Position numbers and translations under genes: made by a program. The notes below the pieces were generated by a model. That model ran no database searches and had not been told where the DNA came from. It worked only from the letters and a program-made list of their open reading frames with translations. This document shows, piece by piece, positions 174 through 10,668 of a DNA stretch of 32,000 bases. The DNA is taken from positions 630,001-662,000 of the forward strand of contig OZ007020.1 in assembly GCA_963931495.1 (NCBI GenBank), in the 5' to 3' direction. This DNA comes from an uncultured Alphaproteobacteria bacterium. Lineage in GTDB: Bacteria; Pseudomonadota; Alphaproteobacteria; Rs-D84. How positions within the stretch are numbered: position 1 is the stretch's first letter; every line of letters begins with the position of its first letter.

Positions 174-644
174 ATGGCAACTGTTATCAGATTGGCGCGT
201 TTCGGTGCAAAAAAGCGTCCGTATTATCATGTCGTGGTTACAGATTCACGCAATGCGCGTAATTCTGGAAATATTTTGGCAACTGTGGGAAAATATAACC
301 CGATGTTACCACGCGATAATGAAAATCGTGTTGTGTTGAATGTTGATGAGGTCAAGTCTTGGTTGGCCAAGGGTGCAAAACCATCAGATCGTGTATATCG
401 CTTTTTGGCGAATGCCGGATTGGTTGCAGCGCGCGTTGTCCCGAACCAAACGAAAAAGAATCAACAGTCTGAAAAGACATTGATGAAAATCAAAGATAAA
501 CAAGAAAAATTGGCAAAAATAGCCGAAGAAAAAGCAGCCGCCGAAGCAGCCGCCAAGGCCGCTGCCGAAGCGCCAGCCGAAGAATCGGCACCGGCCGCCG
601 CAGAAGATGCGCCAGCCGAAGAATCTGCGCCAGTTGCGGAATAA
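174..644 (+). CDS. rpsP: 30S ribosomal protein S16 with Ala/Glu/Pro-rich C-terminal extension
   Basis: N-terminus MATVIRLARFGAKKRPYYHVVVTDSRNARNSG is the S16 signature. SD AAGGAG precedes the ATG. The C-terminal tail repeats APAEESAP. Confidence 0.95.
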   Translation: MATVIRLARFGAKKRPYYHVVVTDSRNARNSGNILATVGKYNPMLPRDNENRVVLNVDEVKSWLAKGAKPSDRVYRFLANAGLVAARVVPNQTKKNQQSEKTLMKIKDKQEKLAKIAEEKAAAEAAAKAAAEAPAEESAPAAAEDAPAEESAPVAE

Positions 645-652
645 TTTTGCGT

Positions 653-686
653 ATGCCCGGGGGTAACCCGGGCATGGTTTTCTGTT
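653..686 (+). terminator. GC-rich hairpin plus U-tract immediately after rpsP (terminator or attenuator)
   Basis: ATGCCCGGG (653-661) pairs with CCCGGGCAT (667-675) around a 5-nt loop, followed by GGTTTTCTGTT. Confidence 0.6.
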
Positions 687-706: not shown

Positions 707-895
707 ATGCCAAAATGTCCGGTGAATCCTGATATAGAATGTGAATATTCTTTTCGTGCGTGGGAATGTCGTCGTCAAATTGATTTTGCCGCCGCGCGTA
801 ATTATGAATACTATATTTATGAAAATGACGGTTGCCCTGCTATGCCGGAATATTGCAGTCGTTTGTACAAATTAAAGAAACAGCAGCAGAGGTAG
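707..895 (+). CDS. hypothetical small cysteine-rich protein (ORF A, 62 aa)
   Basis: Open frame fills the rpsP-rimM gap on the operon strand. It has 5 Cys and two Cys-Pro motifs, and shares MPK..CP..DI and E-x-C-S-R-x-Y with ORF B. No family recognised. Confidence 0.55.
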   Translation: MPKCPVNPDIECEYSFRAWECRRQIDFAAARNYEYYIYENDGCPAMPEYCSRLYKLKKQQQR

Positions 896-898
896 ACG

Positions 899-1141
899 AT
901 GCCAAAGAATAACAATCTTTGTCCATATGATATACTCGGTTCGTTGGCGTGTGATATGATATATCGTGACCAAGAACTGTATCGGCAAATGGATGTGCAA
1001 TTGAAGTCAGGGGCAAAAATAAATATGTTTTTCAGTGCGGATTTATGCGCATGCGCGTGCAATTCGGAATTGTGTTCGCGGTATACAGAACATTTGATAC
1101 GTAATTTGCGAAACTGTAAGAATCATTCAAATGGCCGATAA
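899..1141 (+). CDS. hypothetical small cysteine-rich protein (ORF B, 80 aa)
   Basis: Starts 3 nt after the ORF A stop and overlaps the rimM start by 11 nt (ATGGCCGATAA). It has 7 Cys including CACAC. The N- and C-terminal motifs are shared with ORF A. Confidence 0.55.
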   Translation: MPKNNNLCPYDILGSLACDMIYRDQELYRQMDVQLKSGAKINMFFSADLCACACNSELCSRYTEHLIRNLRNCKNHSNGR

Positions 1142-1595
1142 TAAAAAAATCTTGGTTGGTAAAATTGTCGCACCCCAGGGAATCCGTGGCGAGTTGCGCG
1201 TGAATACATATACAGCAAATCCAACAGATATGCGCGATTTGCGTGTCATGTCGTCGCATTTTGCCGATGGTGCATTCCATTTTGTGCGCGTGGTTCCATC
1301 GTCGTCGGTTATCATTGCGCACGTTGATGGTGTAAATGATCGGAATGCGGCTGAATCATTGCGTGGTACAGAATTGTTTATAAATCGTGATGATTTGCCA
1401 CAACTTGGTCCGGGGGAATATTACCAGGCGGATTTGGTTGGTATGCGGGTCATGCGAAATGGCGCGCAAATTGGTGTGGTGGATAATGTACAAAACTATG
1501 GTGGCGGTGATATCCTGGAACTGGATAGTGGTGATTTGATTGCGTTTAACAGTGTTGATGTAGATACAGAAAATAAAACAATTTATATTCGGTGA
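1131..1595 (+). CDS. rimM: 16S rRNA processing protein RimM
   Basis: ILVGKIVAPQGIRGELRV N-terminal motif and a PRC-barrel-like C-terminus. It sits in the expected position between rpsP and trmD. Confidence 0.9.
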   Translation: MADNKKILVGKIVAPQGIRGELRVNTYTANPTDMRDLRVMSSHFADGAFHFVRVVPSSSVIIAHVDGVNDRNAAESLRGTELFINRDDLPQLGPGEYYQADLVGMRVMRNGAQIGVVDNVQNYGGGDILELDSGDLIAFNSVDVDTENKTIYIR

Positions 1596-1978
1596 TGAAT
1601 ATGAAACAGAAAATGCAAGGTTTGCCAAGAACTTTTATATCGGAATCCGAGAATTTTATTTATGCGTATATTCCGAAATTGCCGGTTGTTTGCAAGGATG
1701 GCAGACGATATGCGTCGTGCGTATTTGTGTGCCCACAGTTTATGAATTATGATGTGGATAAATATGGACGGCGGATTATTCCGAATTATGCGGTTTGTCC
1801 GTATGCCACCGAATTGACGGGACGTCCGGGCCAATGCGATGGCAAACGTGTTTGTTTGAATGGCGAAATTATAAGTGCGCTGTACAGATATAATCCTGTG
1901 AAACAAATAGGTGTTCCGGTACATGAATGGCAAATGATTAAGGCGGATTTAGCAAAAAGGAATCAAAATGGCAGATAA
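1592..1978 (+). CDS. hypothetical cysteine-rich protein (ORF C, 128 aa)
   Basis: A 128-codon open frame in AT-rich DNA. GTG 1592 or ATG 1595 overlaps the rimM stop. It has 6 Cys and two Cys-Pro motifs (VCPQ, VCPY). No family recognised. Confidence 0.6.
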   Translation: MMNMKQKMQGLPRTFISESENFIYAYIPKLPVVCKDGRRYASCVFVCPQFMNYDVDKYGRRIIPNYAVCPYATELTGRPGQCDGKRVCLNGEIISALYRYNPVKQIGVPVHEWQMIKADLAKRNQNGR

Positions 1979-2234
1979 AAAATCAGGTATTCAAGTGTTT
2001 TTCAAATTTGGTGATTATGGTTATAATGATTTGGTCGCAACGTGCGGCGATGATGCAGCGTGCCCGATATTTGGTTTATTGGATGCGTGTAAAACACACT
2101 ATACAACATATCGGCACATTCCAGGTAAATTGCGCGCTGTCAGTGTCGCGGCGCTGAAAGATAAAGACGCAACAAACAGCATGATAAATTTATCTGAATA
2201 CTTATGCACAAAATGCAAAAATCGGATTCGTTAA
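1968..2234 (+). CDS. hypothetical cysteine-rich protein (ORF D, 88 aa)
   Basis: Overlaps the ORF C stop by 11 nt (ATGGCAGATAA) and ends 1 nt before the trmD ATG. It has 5 Cys including a terminal CTKC (CxxC). Confidence 0.55.
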   Translation: MADKKSGIQVFFKFGDYGYNDLVATCGDDAACPIFGLLDACKTHYTTYRHIPGKLRAVSVAALKDKDATNSMINLSEYLCTKCKNRIR

Positions 2235-2235
2235 A

Positions 2236-2922
2236 ATGCACTTTAATATACTGACCATTTTTCCAGAAATGTTTCCGGGCACGTTGGGCGGCGGGGTTGT
2301 TGGTCGCGCTTTGTCTAATGGAACATGGTCATATGATGCAATAAATATTCGTGACTTTGCGCATGATAATTACGGCAGTGTTGATGATGAACAATTTGGC
2401 GGTGGTGTTGGCCAGGTTATGCGCCCAGACGTACTGGGTGATGCAATTGATTCAATTAAAAATCGTGGCAAAATTATATATTTTTCACCGCGTGGACCGC
2501 AACTGACGCAAAAAAAAGTACGCGAATTTGCCGCCGATAAAAATGCAAATTATACATTACTGTGTGGACGGTACGAAGGAATTGATCAACGAATCATTGA
2601 TGAATATGATATAATGGAATTATCTGTTGGCGATTACATACTGTCGGGCGGCGAAATCGCCGCGCAAGTTTTTATTGACAGTGTCGTTCGCGTGATGGAT
2701 AATGTGCTGGGCGGTGGCGCAGATGCCACGCGTAATGAAAGTTTTGAAATCGGGGGGTTAGAATGGCCGTTGTATACCCGCCCGTCGGCATGGCGTGGAC
2801 GTAATGTCCCAGAAGTCCTGCTGTCCGGTCACCACGGCAATATTGAACGGTGGCGGAAACAACAATCGGACGAAATAACAAAACAACGTCGTCCGGATTT
2901 AATAAAGGAAAATGAAAAATGA
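2236..2922 (+). CDS. trmD: tRNA (guanine37-N1)-methyltransferase TrmD
   Basis: [15 protein letters not shown] start, and the GRYEGIDQR and [16 protein letters not shown]/TrmD motifs. Confidence 0.95.
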
Positions 2923-3314
2923 GCATTATTAAAAAAATTGAACAGGCGCAAGTTGAAAAATTGCGTGGCGATAAGAAAATCCCTGCTTTCAAGTCTGGGG
3001 ATACTGTCAAGGTGCATGTCCGCATCAAAGATGGTGATAAATTCCGTATCCAGGTTTTTGAAGGTGTCGTAATCGCACGCGATGGTGGCAATGGTAATAA
3101 TGCGTCGTTCACAGTACGTCGTGAATCATATGGCGTCGGTGTAGAACGCAAGTTCCCACTGTACAGCCCGGCGATTGCCAAAATTGAAAAAGTGCGCACC
3201 GGTAAGGTACGTCGTGCAAAATTGTTCTTCTTGCGCGGATTGTCCGGCAAAAAGGCGCGCATCGTAGAAGATTTGTCTGCGGTGGCGGCGGATAAAGCAG
3301 CAGAAGCAAAATAA
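2919..3314 (+). CDS. rplS: 50S ribosomal protein L19
   Basis: [33 protein letters not shown] is typical of L19. There is an ATGA overlap with trmD. Confidence 0.95.
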
Positions 3315-6973: not shown

Positions 6974-8209
6974 ATGATGGAAAAACCACAACCGTTTGTT
7001 CAACCAGATATGGTATTCAGTGTTTCTGATGCGTCGGCACTGTTAAAAAAAGTTGTTGAAACTGCGTTCCCAACAATCCGGGTGCGTGGCGAATTGTCGC
7101 AAATTACGCGCGCAACGTCGGGGCATATGTATATGACAATCAAGGATGCAAATGCGGCAATATCTGTCATTATTTGGCGTGGAACGCCGGTTCCGTTCAA
7201 AATAGAAGATGGGATGGAGGTTATAATTACCGGACGCTTTACAACATATCCGGCACGCAGTAATTATCAAATTATTGCCAGCGAAATTGAAATGGCGGGC
7301 GTTGGGGCCATTTTGAAAATGCTGGAAGAACGCAAGCGGAAATTGGCGGCCGAAGGGTTGTTTGATAATGCACGTAAAAAGCCACTGCCCCGCTTTCCAC
7401 AGCGTATCGGAATTGTGACCAGTCCAACTGGGGCCGCATTCCAAGATATTCAAAACAGGTTGCGTGAACGTTTTCCAGTGACGATTGTTTTGTATCCTGC
7501 CACTGTTCAGGGTACAACCGCCGCCGCCGAAGTTGCCGCCGGTATAGAATACTTTAATCGTGTTAAAAATGTAGATGTTATTATTGTGGCGCGTGGTGGC
7601 GGCGCATTGGAAGATTTGTTGCCGTTTTCCGAAGAAATTGTTGTGCGCGCGGCGGCGGCCAGCGAAATACCGCTGGTGTCGGGCGTCGGGCATGAACCAG
7701 ATTGGATGTTGATTGACTATGCGGCGGACGTACGCGCCCCAACACCAACCGGTGCCGCGGAAATTGTTGTGCCAACAAAATTATCATTGATCCAGGAACT
7801 GGATAATTTATGGCATCGGTTGTCTGGGAATTTTGCAACACGTCTGGTAAATGCAAAATCACGCATGGAATCAATCGTCATAAAAAGTCCACACCAGATG
7901 GTGATGGAACGTATGCAGCGTTTGGATGATATTGCGCGAACTATGGATATAATTATAAATGGTAAATTTGTTGCCACACATCAAAAGATGACACTTGTAT
8001 CACAGTTTCCGAACATATTGGCAAACAAAATTGCGATACTGAATCAATCTGTGGCGCATATGGGACATATGTTATCATCGCTTGGTTATAAAAATGTTTT
8101 ACAACGCGGTTATGCAATTGTGCGTGGCGCAGACAATAAAATCATCAGTCGCACTGACAGTGGTACACCGGCAACAATTGAATTTGCAGACGGCATAGTG
8201 CATTTGTAA
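6974..8209 (+). CDS. xseA: exodeoxyribonuclease VII large subunit
   Basis: N-terminal OB-fold (VRGELSQITRATSGHMYMTIKD), PQRIGIVTSPTGAA and ARGGGALEDL motifs. Confidence 0.9.
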   Translation: MMEKPQPFVQPDMVFSVSDASALLKKVVETAFPTIRVRGELSQITRATSGHMYMTIKDANAAISVIIWRGTPVPFKIEDGMEVIITGRFTTYPARSNYQIIASEIEMAGVGAILKMLEERKRKLAAEGLFDNARKKPLPRFPQRIGIVTSPTGAAFQDIQNRLRERFPVTIVLYPATVQGTTAAAEVAAGIEYFNRVKNVDVIIVARGGGALEDLLPFSEEIVVRAAAASEIPLVSGVGHEPDWMLIDYAADVRAPTPTGAAEIVVPTKLSLIQELDNLWHRLSGNFATRLVNAKSRMESIVIKSPHQMVMERMQRLDDIARTMDIIINGKFVATHQKMTLVSQFPNILANKIAILNQSVAHMGHMLSSLGYKNVLQRGYAIVRGADNKIISRTDSGTPATIEFADGIVHL

Positions 8210-8978: not shown

Positions 8979-10631
8979 TTAATTTTTTATCAATGTGCGC
9001 GCAGTTGCCAATGATTCAGGTGTAATTTTGGCACCACTGATGATGCGCGCGATTTCGTTTATGCGTTCGTCACCACGGATTTCTGTAACATCTGTTGTGG
9101 TTGTATCGTTCGCAGTATGTTTGGAAATTTTGAAATGTTTGTCGGCGTATCCGGCGACCTGGGCCGAATGCGTTATAACCAATGTCTGGGACGATTGGGC
9201 CAATCTGTTTAATCGGTTGCCAACCGCTGATGCGGTTGCGCCGCTGATTCCGGTGTCAATTTCATCAAATACAAATGTATGTGCGTTGCCACCGTTTGCC
9301 AATACCACGCGCAGTGCCAGCATAAAACGTGCCAATTCGCCCCCAGATGCCGCGCGATTTATCGGCGCAAATGGCATGCCTGGGTTCGTCTTTATCATAA
9401 AAATAATGTCGTCACAGCCGTGCCCGGATGGTGCGGATTCGGTGCGTGATACCATGAAATCTGATGCGCCCAGTTTCAAGTCTGGTAATTCGGCCAGTAT
9501 GCGTTCGCGTAAAGATTCGGCCGCGGCGCATCGGGCATGGGTCAGTTTTTGTGCGGCGTCACGATATTCAGATTCTTTGATTGACAGTTCTTGTTCGGCG
9601 CGTTTGATTTCGGCATCTGAATTTTCAATTGTGTTTAGTTGTTCAGATAATTCATTCAATATTCGCGGCAATTCATCGGCCGGTACGCGATGCTTGCGTG
9701 CCGCCGCGCGAATTGCGAACAGACGTTCTTCTATGCTGTCAATGTCGTCCGTGTCTGTATCGGGCGGGGTTATTTGTTCGGATATATCCGACAACTGTTG
9801 CGCAATATCATACAGTGCGTCAATTTGTTCCGAATATGGATTAGGTTCTGTTTTTATGCGTTGCAATATGTGTGCAACAGAATATATCTGGGAATCCAGT
9901 GATGTACCGTTCGGATTTAATGCAGAAATCGCATCGGATAAAATAGCGGAATTTTTTTCTGCGTTCATTATTGCGGCGCGTTTTTCGGCCAATTCGCTTT
10001 CTTCGCCGATGCGCACATTCAGTGCAGACAATTCATTAAAGTTATGTGTTAAAAAATCGCGTTCTGATTCTGATTTTTCAGATATTTTTTGCAATTCGTC
10101 CAAGTGTTTTTTTGCATTGTTATATGTATTATATGCTGTATTTGTGGCGCGCAAAAACTGTTCGTATTCAGCATTATGCATTATACCGTACGTGTCCAGT
10201 GACGCACGATGTGTTGACGGGTCTAGTAAAGTATGATTGGCAAATTGGCCATGTATTTCAACCAAAGCGTCGCCGACGTGTTTTAATGTTTTGATGGATA
10301 CAGGGATGTCGTTTATCCATGCGCGGCTTTTTCCATCTGGTGACAATGTTCGGCGTAAAATTAAACTGTTGTCGTATTCAATTTCGTTTTCGTCAAGAAA
10401 ACTTTTTAATACATCATCTGTGTCATCAAATTCTGCGACGACGGTCGCCCTGTCGCATCCGGTGCGCACCAGTCCGGCGTCAGAACGCGCCCCCAGTGCC
10501 AGCGCCAGTGCATCCATTAATATACTTTTACCGGCGCCTGTTTCGCCAGTAAGCACGGTCAGTCCAGGACCGAATTCTAAATCCAGCCGTTCAATTAAAA
10601 CGATGTTTGAAATAGACAGACGTACCAGCAT
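8979..10631 (-). CDS. recN: DNA repair protein RecN
   Basis: SMC-like N-terminus (LTVLTGETGAGKSILMDAL), a coiled-coil middle, and a C-terminal ASGGELARFMLAL signature with Walker B (FVFDEIDTGISG). Confidence 0.95.
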   Translation of the reverse strand: MLVRLSISNIVLIERLDLEFGPGLTVLTGETGAGKSILMDALALALGARSDAGLVRTGCDRATVVAEFDDTDDVLKSFLDENEIEYDNSLILRRTLSPDGKSRAWINDIPVSIKTLKHVGDALVEIHGQFANHTLLDPSTHRASLDTYGIMHNAEYEQFLRATNTAYNTYNNAKKHLDELQKISEKSESERDFLTHNFNELSALNVRIGEESELAEKRAAIMNAEKNSAILSDAISALNPNGTSLDSQIYSVAHILQRIKTEPNPYSEQIDALYDIAQQLSDISEQITPPDTDTDDIDSIEERLFAIRAAARKHRVPADELPRILNELSEQLNTIENSDAEIKRAEQELSIKESEYRDAAQKLTHARCAAAESLRERILAELPDLKLGASDFMVSRTESAPSGHGCDDIIFMIKTNPGMPFAPINRAASGGELARFMLALRVVLANGGNAHTFVFDEIDTGISGATASAVGNRLNRLAQSSQTLVITHSAQVAGYADKHFKISKHTANDTTTTDVTEIRGDERINEIARIISGAKITPESLATARTLIKN

Positions 10632-10638
10632 GTTATGG

Positions 10639-10668
10639 ATTATAGTCGTAAAATATGGCGTGTTTCAA
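10639..10668 (-). promoter_or_regulatory. promoter 7 nt upstream of the recN ATG (leaderless arrangement)
   Basis: Minus strand TTGAAA (10668-10663), 18-nt spacer, TATAAT (10644-10639), then CCATAAC and ATG. No SD. Confidence 0.5.

Follow-up and report, generated by a model that had tools for sequence, protein, structure and literature searches.

Introduction

The rpsP-rimM-trmD-rplS operon is among the most conserved bacterial gene clusters. In Firmicutes and Actinobacteria, the genes for the KH-domain YlqC and for YlqD lie between rpsP and rimM; we know of nothing comparable between rimM and trmD, nor of any earlier case of hypervariable arrays fixed in position within this operon. The DNA considered here is a 32,000-nucleotide stretch of contig OZ007020.1 (assembly GCA_963931495.1, positions 630,001 to 662,000), referred to below as the window. 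Its copy of the operon contains four additional small open reading frames (ORFs), named A and B at the rpsP-rimM junction and C and D at the rimM-trmD junction. These ORFs are almost certainly real protein-coding genes. They belong to three lineage-specific families not described before: family 1a (A and B), family C, and family D.

ORFs A and B resemble ylqC and ylqD in being extra small genes at the rpsP-rimM junction, but they encode no KH or other Pfam domain, and YlqC is conserved and single-copy. Other systems share different features with A to D. Trm112 (COG2835/PF03966) is a small zinc-binding protein that activates methyltransferases acting on tRNA, rRNA, and release factors. The likeness is to a small protein with a four-cysteine metal site that acts by binding alongside a translation methyltransferase, since D adjoins trmD and is coupled to it. 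However, the cysteine spacing differs, and the PF03966 profile is matched neither by A to D nor by 60 members of family D. Trm112 partners class I methyltransferases, whereas TrmD is a SPOUT enzyme. In contrast to the conserved Trm112, D is hypervariable, and genomes often lack it or carry several copies.

The zinc-ribbon ribosomal proteins (the C+ forms of L31, L32, L33, L36, S14, and S18) have paralogs that lack the cysteines. They are likewise small four-cysteine (Cys4) proteins encoded in ribosomal-protein operons, with variable copy number or presence. A to D differ from them in having no Pfam or NCBIfam match, in being only mildly basic, and in showing far greater sequence turnover. Nor do A to D resemble bacterial metallothioneins; they have no Pfam match and carry 4 to 7 cysteines per 62 to 128 residues, exactly four of which are conserved.

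Orphan immunity-gene arrays are found in polymorphic toxin systems and in the acquired interbacterial defence islands of gut Bacteroidales. Like the junction genes, they are tandem, small, fast-diverging, and individually dispensable genes for binding proteins, with a repertoire that differs between close relatives. They lie beside toxin genes or on mobile elements and usually do not encode Cys4 proteins. Beside the junction genes, in contrast, no toxin genes, mobility genes, or flanking repeats were found, and each family is tied to a set junction.

The one-domain zinc-finger µ-proteins of Haloferax volcanii that carry C(P)XCG motifs (PMC6562870, PMC11241148) are very small cytoplasmic prokaryotic proteins with two cysteine pairs, often with Cys-Pro. 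Many are lineage-specific, and their binding functions are diverse and mostly obscure. All of this resembles A to D. The haloarchaeal proteins have two knuckles with two-residue spacing, whereas a single CxxC occurs here, in family D only, and the spacing of the other pairs ranges from 3 to 13 residues; none of families 1a, C, and D has a pair of C(P)XCG or CxxC knuckles. In addition, the haloarchaeal genes are scattered, while those described here form arrays confined to set junctions in one ribosomal operon.

Source lineage and comparison set

The source of the window is a Candidatus Enterousia-like gut alphaproteobacterium of the order Rs-D84. Genomes of Enterousia are mostly smaller than 1 Mb and lack the tricarboxylic acid cycle and respiratory chains (PMC12306168). 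Relatives were collected by a TrmD-based scan with one genome per species. This yielded 80 loci (L001 to L080) with TrmD 80–96% identical, all from gut or rumen metagenome-assembled genomes labelled Alphaproteobacteria or Candidatus Enterousia. Plus-strand ORFs were taken from both junctions of the 80 loci and clustered. Junction gene counts, operon architectures, and hairpin tallies refer to 76 loci, each from a different genome.

ORFs A to D are protein-coding genes

Conserved reading frames are present at both junctions in the nearest relatives. Orthologs of A, C, and D share 84%, 73%, and 88% identity with those of L001, 62%, 75%, and 38% with those of L004, and 29%, 50%, and 69% with those of L007; a further A ortholog in L002 is 46% identical. 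ORF B has homologs in L003, L005, and L034 (34–42% identity), is missing from L001 and L007, and has left a 3’ remnant in L004.

Nei-Gojobori ratios of nonsynonymous to synonymous substitution rates (dN/dS) are well below 1 for A, C, and D, as expected under purifying selection. The ratio is 0.08–0.29 for A and 0.19–0.39 for C. For D it is 0.11–0.15 in orthologous pairs and 0.37–0.55 against the divergent D of L004. The comparison values are 0.10–0.18 for rimM and 0.05–0.08 for trmD.

The tiling of the junctions by ORFs is also non-random, as the initial annotation had argued from their packing. Plus-strand ORFs of at least 60 amino acids (aa) cover 87% of the rpsP-rimM junction, a value reached by 1 of 2000 dinucleotide shuffles, and 100% of the rimM-trmD junction, which was reached by none of 2000. 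An ORF of 128 codons, held at the outset to be improbable by chance, appeared in 0.45% of dinucleotide shuffles.

The exact A to D proteins recur on 21 to 68 public contigs from many samples, with "hypothetical protein" as the sole annotation. Exact A is present on 68 contigs and exact B, called by gene finders, on at least 23. Independent gene callers delimit the same four genes on public contigs.

An explanation that competes with protein function is that these are spacer ORFs, arisen de novo at permissive junctions and kept open to deliver ribosomes to rimM and trmD, with peptides of little or no function. The two junctions are shared by at least five mutually unrelated families together with several ORFs that are singletons, all are orphans for which homologs outside the clade were not found, coupling is tight throughout, and fusions and remnants point to ongoing turnover. 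All of this would fit such an origin. The dN/dS ratios do not, and the persistence of four invariant cysteines and further motifs over deep divergence argues for selection on the protein products. In L011, L073, L005, and L025, moreover, rimM and trmD abut directly or the rpsP-rimM spacer is short, which indicates that junction ORFs are not needed for downstream expression. The spacer explanation is therefore very unlikely.

Families and conserved cysteines

The rpsP-rimM junction holds families 1a, 1b, and the cysteine-free helical family H. The rimM-trmD junction holds families C and D, the cysteine-free 48-aa family S, and rarer types. Profile-profile comparison with hhalign relates 1a to 1b (probability 93.8%) and finds C, D, and H unrelated to one another and to family 1; a single superfamily for all four ORFs was rejected on this basis.

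ORFs A and B had been taken for tandem paralogs, and this holds. Both match the hidden Markov model (HMM) of family 1a and align at an invariant C/C/E/Q/C/C series (C4, C12, E20, Q24, C43, and C50 in A; C8, C18, E26, Q30, C52, and C59 in B). When A, B, and the close orthologs of A were left out of the model, A scored 46.9 bits and B 51.7 bits. Pairwise BLASTP detected zero similarity between the two. A public protein collection places A and B in the same "90% identity" cluster although they are only about 23% identical, probably through an artefact of clustering in which a fused or read-through gene call may have played a part.

The cysteine spacing of family 1a is C-x7-9-C ... C-x6-C. Family C, present in 15 of the 80 loci, has invariant C43, C47, C69, and C82 with the spacing C-x3-C ... 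C-x12-C, and the motif Y-x-V-D-x-[WY]-G-R-R-I-I-P. In family D, C26, C32, and C83 are invariant and C80 is present in at least 90% of members; the pattern is C-x5-8-C-P ... C-x2-C, and mean column identity is 13% (alignment of 60 sequences). Exactly four invariant cysteines are also found in each of families 1a, 1b, and C, and at least four cysteines were counted in 149 of the 151 proteins assigned to the Cys4 families.

Because four cysteine columns are conserved in each family while all else varies, the four residues probably form a structural, tetrahedral metal site. The metal would most likely be zinc, bound as Zn(Cys)4. The initial proposal of metal-binding or redox-active proteins thus stands in its first part, as a prediction from the four invariant cysteines of each divergent family; the redox part found no support.

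A second alternative is metal homeostasis, in which the proteins would be a zinc (or iron) buffer or metallochaperone made in step with ribosome synthesis. This would account for conservation of the ligand cysteines only, and family D conserves little else. A copy number of 0 to 6 could tune the capacity of such a buffer. The cysteine content of A to D is also in keeping with it, at 6.4% against 1 cysteine in the 669 residues of S16, RimM, TrmD, and L19 combined. (On recount, A to D have 23 cysteines in 358 residues, with 5, 7, 6, and 5, respectively, and every Cys-Pro dipeptide initially listed is present.) However, one site per 60–130 residues is a poor buffer compared with metallothioneins, and non-ligand residues are also conserved (E and Q in family 1a, GRRIIP in family C). 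High expression is not expected, with a hairpin after rpsP lying upstream and with rimM and trmD, presumed to be of low abundance, adjoining. The cysteine-free families H and S occupy the same junctions in relatives. Metal homeostasis is accordingly improbable, on a par with the spacer explanation or barely ahead of it.

Further details of families H and S were recorded. Family H proteins are helical, about 80 aa long, and often encoded directly next to rpsP; they occur at the rpsP-rimM junction of L012, L024, L026, L050, L052, L053, L057, L062, L066, L068, L069, L071, and L078. Family S proteins are basic, 44–49 aa long, and encoded directly after rimM in L012, L018, L024, L026, and L030. Both families are present in L012, L024, and L026. 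Neither has a Pfam match.

Fixed position and variable content of the junctions

All loci, and the window over its full length, were translated in six frames and searched with the family HMMs. Of the family 1 matches, 65 of 67 lie inside the rpsP-rimM junction. The rimM-trmD junction contains 69 of 71 family D matches and 16 of 16 family C matches. No further family copies were found elsewhere in the window in this six-frame search. Two database members of family D (P0020 and P0028) likewise lie between rimM and trmD. A metagenome scan for a family 1a subgroup returned four loci. In three of them (L089 to L091) the match is directly upstream of rimM, and the fourth (L092) is a 1.1-kb contig in which the flank is undetectable.

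Locus L041 is the only one with family-1-like and D-like proteins outside the junctions, at 7285–7554 and 10466–10657, both on the minus strand. The pair flanks four minus-strand ORFs (140–325 aa) downstream of rplS. Searches with these four ORFs gave 0 Pfam matches and only weak, sub-threshold PHROG matches. The rpsP-rimM junction of L041 is empty (3 nt). This arrangement may be a relocated or a second hot spot.

The content of the junctions is variable. The rpsP-rimM junction is 3 to 847 nt long and holds 0 to 3 genes, and the rimM-trmD junction is −1 to 1789 nt long and holds 0 to 6. They are occupied in 59 and 66 of the 76 loci, respectively, and 74 of the 76 genomes retain at least one such gene despite sizes below 1 Mb. 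Clustering the 185 junction proteins at 40% identity gives 88 subfamilies, of which 68 have a single member, and the 76 genomes display 67 distinct operon architectures.

For array members, the best relative comes from another genome in 97 cases and from the same locus in 6, and recent tandem duplication was rejected on this basis as the origin of the arrays. Divergence between close relatives is mosaic. Nucleotide identity to L004 is 80% for C, 55% for D, and 88% for trmD, while identity to L007 is 60% for C and 75% for D. Integron-type or other mobile cassettes were also considered and rejected; no boundary repeats or recombination sites were found, and only the Shine-Dalgarno (SD) and start regions recur. 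No integrase-like ORF was noticed among the listed junction and flanking ORFs, the flanks not having been scanned against family libraries. The paralogs that make up the junction sets diverged long ago, and from species to species they are gained, lost, or replaced.

Hypervariability of this kind across species is hard to square with a fixed housekeeping role beside the conserved RimM and TrmD, and it brings in a third alternative. The junction proteins may be an arms-race repertoire of inhibitors or immunity-type binders directed against variable foreign molecules, such as phage proteins, host factors, or interbacterial toxins whose targets are tRNA, rRNA, or the ribosome. The rpsP operon would then serve only as a place where genes of a regulator-poor genome are expressed constitutively and in step with growth, with no promoter of their own. 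The extreme diversity on a conserved scaffold, the presence/absence variation with arrays of up to 6 genes, the mosaic replacement of single genes, the old and distinct paralogs within arrays, and the retention of some genes in nearly all of these small genomes although each one is dispensable would all fit.

Other observations do not fit. Searches of PADLOC and PHROGs gave no match, and viral contigs yielded no relatives of family C, families D and 1 not having been effectively searched there. A toxin-like gene was found within about 5 kb in no locus. Position specificity is strict and flanking recombination sites are lacking, which together favour evolution in place over horizontal capture. 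Among close orthologs, purifying selection is of the ordinary kind, with dN/dS not above 1. The arms-race alternative is consequently judged unlikely, though well ahead of the other two.

Natural fusions of junction genes were observed. These are 1b+1a, H+1a, C-C-D (315 aa, P0046), and an unknown 146-aa domain fused to C, and they occur in L032 (3108–3515), L035 (3821–4300), L027 (1482–1919), P0046, P0059, and P0063. The 146-aa domain is also present in free-standing form in L080 (4350–4790). The fusions suggest that the products of neighbouring junction genes can function as a single polypeptide.

Homology and structure searches

No recognisable family had been seen for A to D at first reading, and profile searches bear this out. 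A to D gave no match to Pfam (E up to 1) or NCBIfam, and 60 family D relatives and 26 fused family-1/C relatives gave none to Pfam (E ≤ 0.01). The same 86 relatives likewise lack NCBIfam matches, and together with A to D they had no match in PHROGs or PADLOC; for A to D, the only PHROG similarity was sub-threshold, for C, with an E value of 0.062. Family profiles compared with PDB sequences at E up to 5 returned noise only.

Word-indexed protein searches returned close relatives only, with 16 matches of at least 68% identity for C and 15 for the D profile. An artificial 1b+1a+C fusion profile returned four C-family proteins only. An exhaustive search with C found 33 clusters among 1.84 billion representatives, all of them short proteins or fusions of junction families; the longer matches are fusions, as in P0046. 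The claim that these are lineage-specific small proteins co-expressed with ribosome maturation factors is thus upheld for lineage specificity. For the link to ribosome maturation, the evidence is positional.

Foldseek searches with the AlphaFold2 models of D and C against PDB, and of D against BFVD, gave no match with E below 0.3, for models with a mean confidence (pLDDT) below 50. The D model (pLDDT only 48.5) has the order strand-strand-helix-strand-strand-helix, and its Foldseek listing includes YciH, eIF1, and aIF1 (E 0.6–3.5, TM-score 0.33–0.47). A to D have no SUI1 match in Pfam. The modelled topology of D is a weak resemblance to the beta-beta-alpha-beta-beta-alpha-beta fold of eIF1/YciH (TM-score about 0.45, E 0.6–1.5), to be taken as a lead only.

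Expression signals

ORF A is separated from rpsP by a hairpin with 10 base pairs, 7 of them GC, followed by a U-rich tail. A hairpin at this position (the first 60–70 nt after rpsP) is present in 56 of the 76 related loci, compared with 26% for control windows, and the stem sequences differ. A T-rich tail follows in only 14 of the 56, and for this reason several roles come into question for the hairpin. It may be an attenuator, a processing site, or a stabiliser of the mRNA 3’ end, and could set the ratio of S16 to RimM and TrmD. The hairpin is missing where a family H gene abuts rpsP.

Downstream of the hairpin, 82% of the gaps between consecutive genes are 15 nt or shorter, and 19% are overlaps. 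ORF B has the SD sequence AGAGG 6 nt upstream of its start, inside the 3’ end of A, and ORF D has AAAGGA 6 nt upstream, inside the 3’ end of C. The C-terminal tails of the junction proteins are rich in K, Q, R, and N because the A-rich initiation region of the next gene underlies them.

Layout of the operon

The features of the operon are listed in Table 1. The intergenic spacing given in the initial annotation was rechecked and is correct. A and B are separated by 3 nt, B overlaps rimM by 11 nt, C overlaps D by 11 nt, and 1 nt separates D from trmD. The rimM stop codon (TGA, 1593–1595) overlaps the start of C (GTGATG). Translational coupling, initially assigned to all four ORFs, applies to B, C, and D, each of which is coupled to its upstream gene; it does not extend to A, which begins 62 nt past rpsP, behind the hairpin. 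Base composition is uniform over the region.

Table 1. Features of the rpsP-rimM-trmD-rplS operon in the window.
Feature	Position	Strand	Remarks
rpsP (S16), with Ala/Glu/Pro-rich C-terminal extension	174..644	+	Pfam Ribosomal_S16, E 3.2e-21; ORF list
Terminator- or attenuator-like element	652..686	+	GC-rich hairpin (stem 652-676), then GTTTTCTGTT; terminator scan
ORF A, 62 aa, family 1a Cys4 mini-protein	707..895	+	SD-like AAGGA 5’ of the start
ORF B, 80 aa, second family 1a paralog	899..1141	+	
rimM (16S rRNA processing/30S maturation factor)	1131..1595	+	Pfam RimM, E 1.9e-15; PRC barrel
ORF C, 125-128 aa, family C	1592..1978	+	128 aa with the GTG start; ATGs at 1595 and 1601 are in frame
ORF D, 88 aa, family D	1968..2234	+	
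trmD (tRNA m1G37 methyltransferase)	2236..2922	+	Pfam tRNA_m1G_MT, E 9.8e-43
rplS (L19)	2919..3314	+	Start overlaps trmD stop (ATGA); Pfam Ribosomal_L19, E 3.1e-43

The B/rimM overlap (1131–1141) and the C/D overlap (1968–1978) are the same 11 nucleotides, ATGGCNGATAA. The N-termini are similar as well, MADNKK in RimM and MADKK in D, and a rimM-trmD junction gene of L042 also begins with MADNKK. Efficient A-rich starts may have converged on ATGGCNGATAA and MAD(N)KK; alternatively, the recurrence could be the vestige of a duplicated 5’ end of rimM.

The C-terminal extension of S16 (window positions 480–644) comprises about 55 low-complexity residues rich in Ala, Glu, Pro, and Lys. It contains short internal DNA repeats at 602–637, and its length differs among relatives. 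Beyond the operon, a DUF2155 gene lies about 100–200 nt past rplS in the window and in many loci. It is found about 1.1–2.7 kb further downstream in L002, L003, L009, L010, L014, L016, L025, L034, L053, L061, L068, L070, L072, and L080. This displacement points to another variable insertion point just after the operon.

Discussion

The explanation we favour, at a probability of roughly 55%, is that the junction genes encode lineage-specific, metal-stabilised binding mini-proteins that serve as individually dispensable accessory modulators. A to D would be small cytoplasmic proteins, with family 1 made from the rpsP-rimM junction and families C and D from the rimM-trmD junction. Transcription would proceed by read-through of the hairpin behind rpsP. 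Translation would start from the SD-like sites of the genes themselves, with tight coupling to rimM and trmD through overlaps or gaps of a few nucleotides. The resulting output is predicted to be constitutive, growth-linked, and probably modest. In each protein, the four-cysteine metal site would stabilise a tiny scaffold while the rest of the surface evolves fast, and the products would probably act by binding rather than by catalysis, although the sequences give this last step a weak footing.

The neighbouring translation-maturation factors are the favoured targets because of co-expression, coupling, and position specificity. The preferred candidates are RimM or the pre-30S particle for family 1, and TrmD or tRNA for families C and D. 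That the target is the translation apparatus is a tentative proposal, which we consider possible but less likely than not.

Several points weigh against these proposals. The spacings C-x5-8-C, C-x3-C, and C-x12-C differ from those of classical CxxC zinc knuckles, and Fe or an Fe-S cluster could occupy the cysteine site instead. A to D are only mildly basic, and become nearly neutral when the C-terminal tails are disregarded, unlike typical rRNA-binding proteins. Although RimM and TrmD are conserved, almost every species has different mini-proteins. L011 and L073 have none of these genes, and the rpsP-rimM junction is empty in 17 loci and the rimM-trmD junction in 10. Because reduced genomes are tightly packed by default, coupling says little about physical partnership. 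The AlphaFold2 models are unreliable, with pLDDT 48.5 for D (13 sequences) and 40.7 for C (17 sequences).

A more far-reaching idea is that the two junctions form a dedicated diversity locus. They would hold a fast-turnover repertoire of metal-stabilised mini-binders, tied to the expression of ribosome biogenesis, that shields or tunes translation against variable outside threats such as translation-targeting toxins, phage, or host factors. We consider this unlikely, slightly below the arms-race alternative. If true, the locus would represent a new type of defence or interaction island, one free of mobile-element machinery, in genomes smaller than 1 Mb.

A conserved operon in a lineage with reduced genomes thus accommodates as many as nine additional genes, drawn from at least five orphan families, and the sets differ in almost every species, yet nearly all species keep some. 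For structural and metallobiochemical work, the locus supplies three new families of Cys4 mini-proteins, and it is a natural system for following the birth, diversification, and loss of small genes inside an essential operon. It is also a lead, in uncultured gut symbionts, either to accessory factors that take part in maturing the 30S subunit or methylating tRNA, or to a new protective repertoire.

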